Origin: a virus | Taxonomy: Duplodnaviria; Heunggongvirae; Uroviricota; Caudoviricetes | Length of the DNA: 19,040 bases | Strand: one strand, 5' to 3' | Virus record (IMG/VR): IMGVR_UViG_2526164604_000026 | Span: 1 to 19,040 of that record | Shown: one piece after another, positions 1-3,000 of the stretch | Position numbering within the stretch: the first letter of the stretch is position 1 | Layout: each line of letters starts with the position of its first letter | Made by a program: the position numbers

Positions 1-3000
1 TCAAATAACCAACTTAACCCATTCCTGACCTCGAGTATCGTTATAGCGATCGGTGGTTGCCTGGACTTTATGTCCTAGTAATGTTTTTGTATCGATACCC
101 TGTGCACGGTACAGCCGTTCTGATAGAGAGCGTTGTTCATGAAATGTTGGCGGAGTTTTTCCTGCTGGTGGAATTACCCCAGCCAGATCCCGTGCTTTGG
201 CAAAGTAGTCGCTCAGGTTGTCTTTACTCATCGGCTTCGGTTGTTTCTGGTGCCGACTATGGATTAGATATGGACTTAATATTCTGTCTCGGCACCCATC
301 AATAACTTCTTTTAACGTTATCCCAATGGCATCACAGCGTAGTGTAAGCGGTAACGCCAGACGCATTCCGGTTTTTCCCTGGGTGATATGCAAGTGTTCG
401 TTCCACACATCTGAAAAACGCATGTGGCAAATGTCATCACGGCGCTGACCAGTAACAATCGCAAGAAGCATTGCGTTACGGATAAAGTGTTTTTCAGGCG
501 TTGCATTGTAAATTTTTTGCCAGTCTTCCATGGTGAGCCTGGCTCTGGTTACTTTAGGGATCGGTTTACGGGTAGCCTCCGGAGGATTCCATCCAGGAGG
601 AACTTCCCCTGCATGCTGTGCTTCTTTATAAATATCAACCCATAATCCACGATTTACTCTCGCTGTACTGACCATGTCTTTATCCAGCCACTCATCCAGT
701 ATTAATGCAAAGTCTCTTACTTCCAGTTCTTTCAATGGGTGGTTTCCCAGACGGGAAACCAGGTATGCAGCCATTCGAGTTTTTTCTTTGTGAGTTGTAG
801 CTGCAATATCTCCATTTTTCAGTCGCGTGTCCTGTATTTTCAGATATCGATCAACCCATGCCTTTAATCTGATACCCCGACGTTTTGTTGCTGACGGACT
901 TTCATCAATTTTGCGCATGAAATATTCAGCTTCTGCTGCAGCTATTCGCTGATTGGCTGTGGAAGCGATTTTTTCTGCCTTACCTTTGTCTGTTCCGAGT
1001 CCGTGAAATTTTCCAGTCACAGGATTTTTATACTGGTAGTAAACTCTGCCAGTTCTGCGATCAAACTTTTCGTAAAGACCGGCTACGTCAGTGCTGTTTT
1101 TTCGTGGCCTCGGTGACATGAGTTAAAATCTCCTTCAGTGCATCATCATCGCCAGTATGAATTTCCGGCGCAATTCCCGTTTCACCAGGCCCAACAAATA
1201 CTGCTCGGCGATCTATCAGCCAACGCCCACGAATTTTTTGTGGTCTTGGAACGATGTATCCTAGTTTTCCGTATTTCACCAGGGTAGTGTTTGTTATTGG
1301 GAGACTGAACCGTTTTGGTTTCCACTCGTCGAGCGTTATCAGGTACTGTTCGCTCATGGCTATCACTCCGGAACGCGCCAGTTGCAGAATATCAACGACA
1401 ACTGGCGACGGTTGAACATTAAAAATCAGCCTGACTCGGGATCAGTTTTTGCCAGATAACTGAAACGTATTTTGCCTGGTAACGGGCGTCATCAAGTGCA
1501 TTATGGCGCTCACCTTCGAATGGAATAGCCGTTCTGGCATCGAAGTCTATGGCTTTCCCCAGCTCAACGATTGTGCGTACATCGCGATCGTTGTAGTAAC
1601 GCCACGGGCAGGGGATCCCCTGCCGTTCGTATGAACGGCGCAAAATCGTGTTGTCGAAGTTGGCTCCATTTCCCCAGACCTGAACAAAAAATTCACCGGA
1701 GTTTTCGTCGATAAATTCCCGCAATTGTAACAGTGCATCATCTAACGGGATTTCATCGGTCATAATGGCAGATTGCGCTTCGCGTGATTGCTTAAGCCAC
1801 CATTTAATGGTGTCCCTCGCCGTGTGCTTTCGTGTTGTGTGCCTGCTTTTTACCACGTCAGGCGAGGTGGTCCCCGTTATTCCCCAACAACAAGGATCTT
1901 GTTAATCTGGATATCCCCAACAACAATAAGAGTATTGAATGTGATCGCTGAATTAACGGCAGCAATGACGGCTATTCGTGAAACCGCCCAGATTGCAAAA
2001 CTAATGAACGAGGCAAAAACTCAAGCTGAAGTAAATGCGGCTATTGGTGAACTGAACTCAAAGCTTGCATCTATTCAGCGCGAATGCGTGTCTCTCGTTG
2101 AGCTGGTGGGCACTTATCAAGAAATAAATGCTTCTCTCAAAGCTAAAATTGCAGAATTTGAAAACTTTGAGGCTCAGACGGAAGGTTATATCCTTAGCCA
2201 ACTTGAGTCGGGAACTTTTGTGTACTCGAAGGAGGTAACCGTGAACGGCGGCAGCATAATCATGCATCTTTGTCCAAAATGTTTTGGACAAAAGATAGTA
2301 TCGATACTTCAGCCATTCCCGGTTAGAGAATATGAATTTTTTCATAAAAGCAGGTGCCTGTACTGTGAAAATCAGTTTCTTATGAATAAAAATCCGGATT
2401 ACGTATCACCTCCATCTATTGAAGAGTTGGCCAGAAAACTGAACGGCAATCTGTAGATTTTTACTGTTATGGATATCCAGATTGTTAAAGAGCATGCCGG
2501 ATGCTTGCTTGTGTCCGGCGCGTGTGCACCACTCTCCCCCCGTGGAGGATTCCTTAATTACCAGATTTCATTAGTCAGAGTTTCTTGCTAACCAGCGACG
2601 CGCGCCAGATTCGGTTTTAAACGTTTTGCTTTTGGTATACGTCATCGCGGTGAACGTGCCGTCCTGGTTGGGAAACACGCCGCACACCAGAGATTCGTTG
2701 TTGCCAAGATCAAGAGTATCCATGCTGACCTCATATCCCCTTAACGCCGGGGTAGCGGAACAAAAACCTGCTGCATAGTTAAAGTTGAACCCTGCCGTCA
2801 TGTTCTTACGCCTCGGGCTGGCTACTTAATCCCTGACCACTGCCGGGTAACTCTAGGTATTGCCCTGTATTGTGTGGGACGGGATGGGTTGGTATGGGAA
2901 AACTATAGGAAATGCCTAATTGCTTGTCAATAGGCTGCGCCTAATGATTTGGGTGCGACCTAATAGGTGATGGTTTGTGGGAGAGGTAGTAGGAGTTAAC

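Follow-up and report, generated by a model that had tools for sequence, protein, structure and literature searches.

A Rip1-family candidate for anti-phage defence in the sieB slot of Escherichia coli prophage CP-933N

What does a lone rightward gene do among the leftward genes between the integrase and the repressor of an Escherichia coli prophage? The question is raised by the virus record IMGVR_UViG_2526164604_000026, of which positions 1 to 19,040 were analysed (the window, that is, the whole stretch of 19,040 nt). Between 1400 and 2900, the window matches E. coli O157:H7 chromosomes with 100% identity, that of strain EDL933 among them. In EDL933, prophage CP-933N is inserted between potC and potB, and the window starts at its integrase. 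In EDL933, the product of the gene at 1941–2456 is annotated as “unknown protein encoded by prophage CP-933N” (AAG55872.1, Q8X8C7). An earlier reading of the bare sequence (the original prediction) had proposed that the gene encodes an exclusion or defence factor that belongs to no named family. We consider it likely, with a probability of about 0.7, that the gene is a single-protein anti-phage defence of the Rip1 family and a “moron” of the defective lambdoid (Rac-like) prophage CP-933N, in which it fills the sieB slot. The proposed defence role is thus supported by homology to Rip1 and by context, and reaches as far as homology does. The lack of a named family has been overtaken, since the Rip1 family was published in 2026 with structure 9oox, and its relative hkaP had already been annotated as encoding an exclusion protein.

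The protein and its family

The mechanical open reading frame (ORF) on the plus strand extends from 1788 to 2456, as originally delimited, and the original prediction had itself pointed to position 1941 within it. The true start is the GTG at 1941, as indicated by the annotation of the pipeline PGAP and by homolog lengths of 155–175 amino acids (aa). A Shine-Dalgarno (SD) sequence, AAGAG, lies at 1928–1932, 8 nt 5′ of this GTG. The coding sequence (CDS) and the parts of its product are as follows.

1941–2456, plus strand: Rip1-family CDS, GTG start, TAG stop, 171 aa (WP_000559928.1; PGAP)
1947–2177, plus strand: N-terminal helical region, residues 3–23 and 28–79 (AlphaFold2; best-conserved segment)
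2190–2390, plus strand: C-terminal beta domain with four cysteines, zinc-ribbon-like, residues 84–150
2271–2273, 2280–2282, 2355–2357 and 2364–2366, plus strand: the four cysteine codons

Compared with alleles and orthologs whose products share between 98% and 42% of their amino acids with it, the frame has a ratio of nonsynonymous to synonymous substitution rates (dN/dS) of 0.10–0.29; it is therefore a real protein-coding gene under purifying selection, and it is conserved in related prophages. The GC content of the ORF is 41.9%, which falls in the 5th percentile of windows of 516 nt, whereas the window as a whole has 49.6%. The description of the gene as AT-rich holds to that extent, but the effect is modest, the cro-like gene (42.9%) and racR (42.6%) being similar in GC.

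Judged by its sequence and its predicted fold, the window protein is a divergent member of the known Rip1 defence family. A profile of 38 homologs searched against PDB sequences matched 9oox_L, “ring interacting pore 1 (Rip1)”, over residues 6–152 (E = 7.4e-24), with 9oox as the only strong PDB entry, and a single-sequence phmmer search against the PDB matched 9oox Rip1 as well (E = 3.6e-7). Foldseek with the AlphaFold2 model placed 9oox_M at the top (E = 4.8e-7, probability 1.00, 28% identity, 120 alignment columns, target-normalised template modelling score 0.72), and the next unrelated match reached only E = 0.17. PDB entry 9oox is the cryo-electron microscopy structure of Rip1 from Escherichia phage HK446 (gp37, YP_007111990) with the small terminase of T6. 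The window protein also belongs to phrog_1244 (E = 1e-57; annotated in PHROG as “unknown function”), which is matched by HK446 Rip1 (2e-53), HK620 HkaP (8e-51) and JBD30 gp30 (3e-61). With tblastn, the window protein matched the Pseudomonas Mu-like phages JBD30, DMS3 and D3112 (orf25) at ~30% identity (E = 2e-11), HkaP of HK620, HK630 and HK629 at 29% identity (E = 1e-12 for HK620), and HK446 at 27% identity, while the ECOR13 phages PhiR29 and PhiR49 carry near-identical copies (93.6%). In an exhaustive profile search, the representatives of 3,329 clusters matched at E ≤ 1e-3, with lengths that are almost always 145–175 aa.

The AlphaFold2 model of the window protein, built with 38 homologs, has a mean predicted local distance difference test score of 91.7, with helices at residues 3–23 and 28–79 and a beta domain at 84–150. 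The long helix followed by CPKC…CLYC that had been read from the sequence is recovered in this model, and Cys111, Cys114, Cys139 and Cys142 show no variation in the 38 homologs. The four cysteines, an ILQ motif and other invariant columns are common to the window protein, HK446 Rip1, HK620 HkaP and JBD30 gp30. Variability is highest in the loop between the cysteine pairs (125–138) and in the C-terminal tail (151–171), and conservation is highest in the helices, a pattern consistent with a conserved effector (the helices) and a variable sensor (the loop and tail). By analogy with Rip1, the N-terminal helices would be pore-forming amphipathic helices; the maximum hydrophobic moment is 0.44 (residues 7–24) vs. 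0.42 in HK446 Rip1, a level that shuffled sequences also attain (138 of 500). No transmembrane segment was found in the window protein (maximum Kyte-Doolittle 19-residue average 1.13). Pfam and NCBIfam searches with the window protein gave coiled-coil noise only, with no Pfam DNA-binding match and no match in either library to the DksA/TraR zinc finger (zf-dskA_traR), even at E ≤ 1.

Rip1, a prophage-encoded, pore-forming anti-phage protein, was described by Patel et al. (Nature 651:1060, 2026; doi 10.1038/s41586-025-10075-1); it forms its membrane pore around the terminase or portal rings of phages. It is a Pseudomonas aeruginosa prophage protein whose gene lies between terminase genes, and it has no toxicity by itself (PMC13434031). 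Mutations that allow escape affect the portal if the phage infects Pseudomonas and the small terminase if it infects E. coli, and 12 Rip1 subunits assemble around an 11-mer terminase ring (PMC13434031); the sensing of small terminase is also reported in PMC13601566 and PMC12908700. The N-terminal part of Rip1 is an amphipathic helix, the ring is contacted by the C-terminal half, and the complex forms a pore, with dye release from liposomes and holes in cells (PMC13434031). Homologs are common across Proteobacteria and mainly prophage-borne (PMC13434031).

HK446 Rip1 resembles the window protein in its phrog_1244 membership and in N-terminal helices followed by a four-cysteine beta domain, with superposing predicted fold. 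Its gene likewise occupies the sieB slot on the opposite strand, in the interval between early-left genes and N/immunity, with the conserved block upstream. It differs in amino-acid sequence (25–27% identity), in the repeat class of its cassette (TACCCCTACAG in HK446 vs. TCCCCAACAACAA in the window) and in its inter-cysteine loop; at the N-terminus the window protein is without an extension of 10 residues found in HK446 Rip1, and at the C-terminus it is longer by a tail of ~20 residues. The HkaP genes of HK620 and HK630 share family, slot, orientation and upstream block with the window gene, but their products are only 29–30% identical to the window protein. The Mu-like Rip1 proteins of P. aeruginosa (JBD30 gp30, DMS3, D3112 orf25) share the PHROG, the size, the invariant cysteines and the arrangement as a single gene antisense to the flanking operon; they differ in host genus and have no sieB/sas cassette upstream.

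The upstream cassette and the 3′ end of the module

The 105 nt upstream of the gene are more conserved (70–84% identity) than the gene itself (CDS 44–62% at the nucleotide level, 25–57% at the protein level). The cassette at 1838–1940 of the window also lies 5′ of sieB in lambda (1395–1482 of the lambda stretch, L155) and in P22 (29650–29757 of the P22 stretch, L156). Its parts in the window are the following.

1838–1870: conserved block TGTGCCTGCTTTTTACCACGTCAGGCGAGGTGG, shared with the lambda and P22 sieB upstream regions and with many cargo genes
1876–1908, plus strand: predicted PsieB-type promoter (P22 alignment), with a -10-like TAATCT at 1903–1908 and repeat copy 1 over the -35
1881–1893 and 1914–1926: exact 13-nt direct repeat TCCCCAACAACAA, upstream of the true start
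1913–1940, plus strand: predicted 5′ untranslated region (UTR) of ~27 nt, starting at ~1913–1915 at repeat copy 2 (from P22; the rest read off the sequence)
1841–1945, minus strand: predicted antisense RNA of the sas type, whose complement takes in the start codon, SD and 5′ UTR, the two repeat copies and the conserved block

The two repeat copies noticed in the original prediction are exact, and repeats of this kind occurred in 0 of 20 shuffles of the window. The P22 record annotates a sieB promoter at 29690–29720 and a sieB RNA start at 29727. The P22 and window sequences align colinearly: repeat copy 1 extends into the -35 region, the -10 is GATAAACT in P22 and stands opposite GTTAATCT in the window, and the P22 RNA start is the base directly before the second repeat copy. 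The promoter that had been expected near the repeats is thus supported, with the repeats marking the promoter region by homology to P22, but the same DNA also appears to be part of an antisense-RNA gene.

In P22, sas is a known antisense RNA that turns off SieB translation, a small RNA of 127 nt found in infected cells only (PMC13397905). Once reverse-complemented, the published sas sequence (PMC13397905) is identical to the homologous stretch of P22; it begins 4 nt within sieB, crosses the SD, the two repeats and the promoter, and ends shortly beyond the conserved block. Read on the minus strand, the conserved block, which occurs once in the window, corresponds to the 3′ part of P22 sas, with its CCAC/GUGG and GCCUG/CAGGC helices. 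The sas-like RNA of the window contains a hairpin (1894 to 1873) with a GGGG loop. When 35 distinct minus-strand cassettes were aligned, the CCAC/GUGG helix and a hairpin that encloses the sequence complementary to repeat copy 1 had 95% of cells paired, with 33 compensatory cells vs. 9.1 ± 2.4 in shuffles (0/500), and slid-register controls scored far below this. Many of the minus-strand G-U pairs would be A-C mismatches if read on the plus strand. Taken alone, the minus strand of the window showed no significant gain in folding over its shuffles (z = -0.51), and it is covariation that supports the sas-like reading. Given the P22 annotation, the published sas sequence and the minus-strand covariation, the region upstream of the window gene is most likely both a PsieB-type promoter (plus strand) and the template of a sas-like RNA (minus strand, ~1945 to 1841).

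Other readings of the cassette were considered and rejected. A plus-strand leader RNA or H-type pseudoknot was dropped because its folding was no better than that of shuffles (z = +1.09) and because the block lies upstream of the RNA start mapped in P22. By eye, the block was also read as a CRP-like, IHF-like or DnaA-box site, but none of these fits its invariant positions. Rfam gave no match in 1700–2700, even at E ≤ 10.

The unit that the window has in common with unrelated prophage backbones (CPS-53-like phages) is 1833–2493. Two short elements lie at its right end and just beyond it.

2471–2493: conserved 3′ element GGATATCCAGATTGTTAAAGAGC, which marks where the mobile module stops on the right (shared-unit boundary; 17 homologs compared in their 3′ flanks)
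2497–2519: hairpin GCCGGA-N11-TCCGGC at the point where the rip1-like and DUF1391 genes converge (sequence and 3′ flank comparison)

The element GGATATCCAGATTGTTAAAGAGC repeats the -10/start segment TTAATCTGGATATCC in inverted orientation, and the resulting 26-nt arms, at 1904–1929 and 2458–2483, bracket the ORF. In most close homologs the element follows the stop codon and is itself followed by a canonical T-run terminator (AAGCGTCC..GGGCGCTTTTTT). In the window, the hairpin at 2497–2519 was not called as an intrinsic terminator by the scan.

The bracketing arms and the four-cysteine motif could suggest that the protein is a zinc-ribbon nucleic-acid-binding regulator of the GGATATCC-containing inverted elements that flank its own gene, and both arms of the 26-nt repeat are indeed conserved in close homologs. 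Yet the match to Rip1 in sequence and fold spans the whole protein and not the cysteine motif alone, there is no Pfam DNA-binding or DksA/TraR match, the homologs of HK446, HK620 and JBD30 have no flanking GGATATCC elements, and the left arm is already accounted for by the promoter/sas cassette. We regard such a regulator as highly improbable.

If the gene is instead a Rip1-type defence, a sequence of events can be proposed. In the lysogen, transcription would start from the PsieB-type promoter (-10 at 1903–1908, start at ~1914), independently of the early operons, as suggested by the P22 annotation and the literature; by the published work on Rip1, the window protein alone would be harmless. 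Late in infection by another phage, the C-terminal four-cysteine beta domain would bind around the small terminase or portal ring. By analogy with Rip1, ~12 copies would then be templated into a second ring, whose N-terminal amphipathic helices would form an inner-membrane pore, and the cell would be killed or lysed before progeny are finished. Once leftward lytic transcription begins, whether in the resident prophage or in an incoming phage whose cassette matches, it would produce an antisense RNA over the ribosome-binding site that stops synthesis, as P22 sas suggests, and this shut-off would give self-tolerance. A protein that is “hypothetical” in ~650 complete E. coli genomes would thus be a terminase- or portal-sensing pore that aborts infection. 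Such a defence would bear on phage biocontrol and therapy against enterohaemorrhagic E. coli, and on which further phages, Shiga toxin (Stx) phages among them, these strains acquire.

The slot and the decay of the prophage

The original prediction had described a rightward gene set against its neighbours, which the annotation of the region confirms.

1–1119, minus strand: int
1088–1366, minus strand: xis
1419–1820, minus strand: exonuclease remnant (C-terminal 134–145 aa of a large 3′-5′ exonuclease, N-terminus gone; PGAP pseudogene)
Between the Rip1-like gene and racR, minus strand: DUF1391 gene
2902–2930, minus strand: strong leftward sigma-70-like promoter TTGACA-17-TATAGT in the racR/DUF1391 interval (promoter scan, 11/12 consensus matches)
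3039–3515, minus strand: racR
Right of racR, plus strand: cro/ydaS-like gene, ydaT and replication genes

From its position, the promoter at 2902–2930 is probably the leftward early (pL-equivalent) promoter of a Rac-like prophage. It is convergent with the Rip1-like gene, and its transcripts would run antisense through gene and cassette; we infer that this promoter-like site (2930 to 2902) could drive antisense transcription after derepression.

The gene had been placed in an int-proximal slot, and this part of the prediction does not stand. Compared with an intact Rac-like prophage (strain 05-3629; 1430–4377 of L009), the window has a clean deletion of 2,948 bp with its junction at 1816/1817. 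The deletion took away dicB, a DUF1482 gene, intergenic DNA and the greater part of an exonuclease gene of 2.5 kb, and the exonuclease remnant matches only the C-terminal parts of 264–823-aa exonucleases in Pfam and PHROG. It is because of this deletion that the Rip1-like gene adjoins exo, xis and int, and its int-proximal position is secondary. The deletion ends 124 bp upstream of the start codon and spares both the cassette and the gene.

In every context examined, the gene is antisense to its neighbours and lies beside the immunity region. The order is exonuclease, DUF1482, dicB / gene / DUF1391, repressor in the intact Rac-like prophage; yfdP / gene / cI in CPS-53/e14-like prophages and phage PhiR29_1; xis / gene / S24 repressor in Citrobacter; early-left genes / gene / cI in Klebsiella; and exoVIII / gene / N in Edwardsiella. 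A Salmonella homolog (70% identity; L026/L027) lies with its cassette inside the early-right operon, in the interval between the ydaS-like cro and the replication genes, and is still antisense; the module can therefore relocate. The Rip1 gene of HK446 and the HkaP genes of HK620 and HK630 lie between cIII or ral and N, where lambda and P22 have sieB. Judged from these gene orders, the slot is immunity-proximal and of the sieB type, rather than int-proximal. Slot and orientation agree in HK446, HK620 and HK630, in three types of E. coli prophage, and in Citrobacter, Klebsiella and Edwardsiella. The comparison with the moron niches of rexAB and sieB holds in that the slot and the cassette are those of sieB in lambda and P22.

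Members of the close subfamily come from Enterobacterales alone, and all are labelled “hypothetical”. Of the complete E. coli genomes (5,426 in all), 645 contain at least 80% of the ORF. Its two main alleles have identities of ≥99% (O157:H7, O55:H7) and ~94.6%; the O157:H7 records among the matches listed all carry it at 100% identity. The scan of genome contigs used one peptide pattern and hence yielded only 15 loci. An HkaP-type Rip1-like gene (29–31% identity) was observed in OR845271, from O157:H7 strain ATCC 43895, and in LC744178, a Stx1a phage; one strain may therefore hold two divergent Rip1 paralogs.

SieB is an exclusion function that is expressed in lysogens and aborts infection. 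The shared slot and orientation and the homologous ~105-nt cassette (promoter, RNA start at the second repeat, antisense template) invite the view that the window protein is a SieB-like membrane exclusion protein acting by the SieB mechanism, and hkaP of HK620 is labelled “putative superinfection exclusion protein” in its record on that basis. The searchable literature gave nothing on hkaP function, one paper having used the flanking intergenic regions solely as neutral insertion sites. The proteins themselves, however, are unrelated: the window protein matches neither Pfam SieB (PF14163) nor the SieB PHROGs and has no hydrophobic transmembrane segment, whereas lambda SieB and a cassette-linked SieB homolog match the SieB models strongly. 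Membership of the SieB family is thereby refuted, and we rate a SieB-type mechanism as the least probable of the explanations weighed here.

A Rip1 homolog could also serve the phage itself, tuning the timing of its own packaging or lysis through its own terminase or portal ring and having no role in exclusion. Such a role would suit the Pseudomonas Mu-like phages, in which the homolog lies between the small and large terminase genes, and inducible phages such as PhiR29_1, in which the gene occurs together with the phage's own packaging genes. It fits poorly with the published work, in which Rip1 acts in defence and escape mutations fall in the portal or terminase of the invader, and with a gene that is always antisense to the lytic operons, has a sieB-type lysogen cassette with an antisense shut-off RNA, and is intact in CP-933N despite a frameshifted portal gene. 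We therefore consider it unlikely.

The state of the prophage raises a further possibility, namely that the ORF is decaying and non-functional and is conserved only through the youth of the O157:H7 lineage. In EDL933 (NZ_CP008957, 1648–1676 kb; L007), the portal gene of CP-933N is frameshifted and the tape-measure gene is truncated, with an IS2 inside the prophage; CP-933N is therefore defective. The exonuclease is truncated as well, and the canonical 3′ terminator is missing in the window. Against decay, the frame is full-length with dN/dS of 0.10–0.29 over the range of identities given above, the identical module occurs in inducible phages and several prophage types, and the deletion stops 124 bp upstream so that the whole cassette is spared. 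Decay of the gene is thus very unlikely. It is possible that the gene has been domesticated, in that a prophage without recombination and structural functions keeps it and its control cassette intact. Besides this gene, CP-933N in EDL933 carries the type III effector genes nleL, espN and espK and the toxin gene hokD.

Several points weigh against a Rip1-type defence as the function of the window gene. Identity to characterised Rip1 proteins is just 25–31%, no experiment on the window protein or its close subfamily was found, and the mechanism of Rip1 is used here second-hand, from a review (PMC13434031). The hydrophobic moment of 0.44 was equalled in 138 of 500 shuffles, so the amphipathicity is not above that of shuffled sequence. 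No PADLOC-DB v2 (2023) model matched, the sole hit being a spurious one to a type I restriction-enzyme model (E = 0.041); this miss is expected, as the library predates the description of the Rip1 family in 2026. The predicted promoter is weak by consensus (8–9 of 12 matches, with 7–8 of 12 in hexamer scoring) and a sigma-70 scan called no promoter upstream of the ORF, and its assignment therefore rests on homology to P22 and not on consensus. The window copy has no T-run terminator and carries the GCCGGA..TCCGGC hairpin in its place, as does the Rac-like relative. Finally, the host prophage CP-933N is decaying.

The cassette as a possible module with varied cargo

The cassette reaches well beyond the Rip1-like gene. 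In E. coli it was found at 4,361 places in 2,764 of the 5,426 complete genomes, with up to five per genome and, among the matches listed, three in each O157:H7 record; in 0 of 30 of the matches listed did an annotated feature lie under it. When viral contigs were searched with the core sequence of the block, at least 120 stretches were obtained (L035–L154) with 121 pattern matches among them, and the extended block was present in 108 of the 121. The first ORFs 3′ of the cassette fall into at least 31 clusters among the 90 cases listed, mostly PHROGs of unknown function. The cargo in these 90 cases includes SieB (Pfam PF14163) and Rip1-like proteins (11/90), plus a variant of 136 aa. This variant, from viral contig L103, is a coiled-coil and CxxC…CxxC ORF with a TTCCACAGTCAA-class cassette upstream, and by its match to phrog_1244 (E = 3e-22) it is a compact Rip1-like variant.

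Exact direct repeats of at least 9 nt, spaced 32–35 nt apart and starting 9–13 nt after the block, are present in 50 of 97 distinct cassettes. The repeats fall into at least five sequence classes, TCCCCAACAAC, ACCCCTACAG, TTCCACAGTCAA, CCCCAATGCAA and CCCCCACAA; within each class both copies are identical, and they change together. No relevant earlier description of a sieB-slot hotspot or a PsieB cassette was found in the literature.

We tentatively suggest, at rather less than even odds, that the ~105-nt sieB-type cassette is a portable lysogen promoter and sas-like silencer for a hypervariable defence-gene slot, with the repeat classes as its specificity types. The plus strand would give any inserted cargo a lysogen promoter and a short 5′ UTR, and the minus strand would encode a sas-like RNA that silences the cargo in lytic growth. 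The loop of the sas hairpin, complementary to repeat copy 1, would nucleate pairing to the mRNA, whose 5′ end carries copy 2. As the 5′ UTR is conserved within a class, an incoming phage of the same class could silence the resident cargo in trans, and the specificity types would then reflect an arms race of defence and counter-defence at the RNA level. If this is true, the ORFs that follow the cassette are a direct handle for new defence genes, and the sieB/sas cassette, present in half of the complete E. coli genomes, would mark a hotspot of many uncharacterised candidates.

The remaining cassettes have no repeats. In these, the block GGTGGTAT is followed directly by one covarying hairpin and then by an SD and ATG (L035, L041, L044, L047, L052, L070 and others), with stems such as TTCTTGG/CCAAGAA, GCTGG/CCAGC and ACTGG/CTAGT (G-U on the plus strand). 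The TGGTATnCT found in these cassettes resembles an extended -10.

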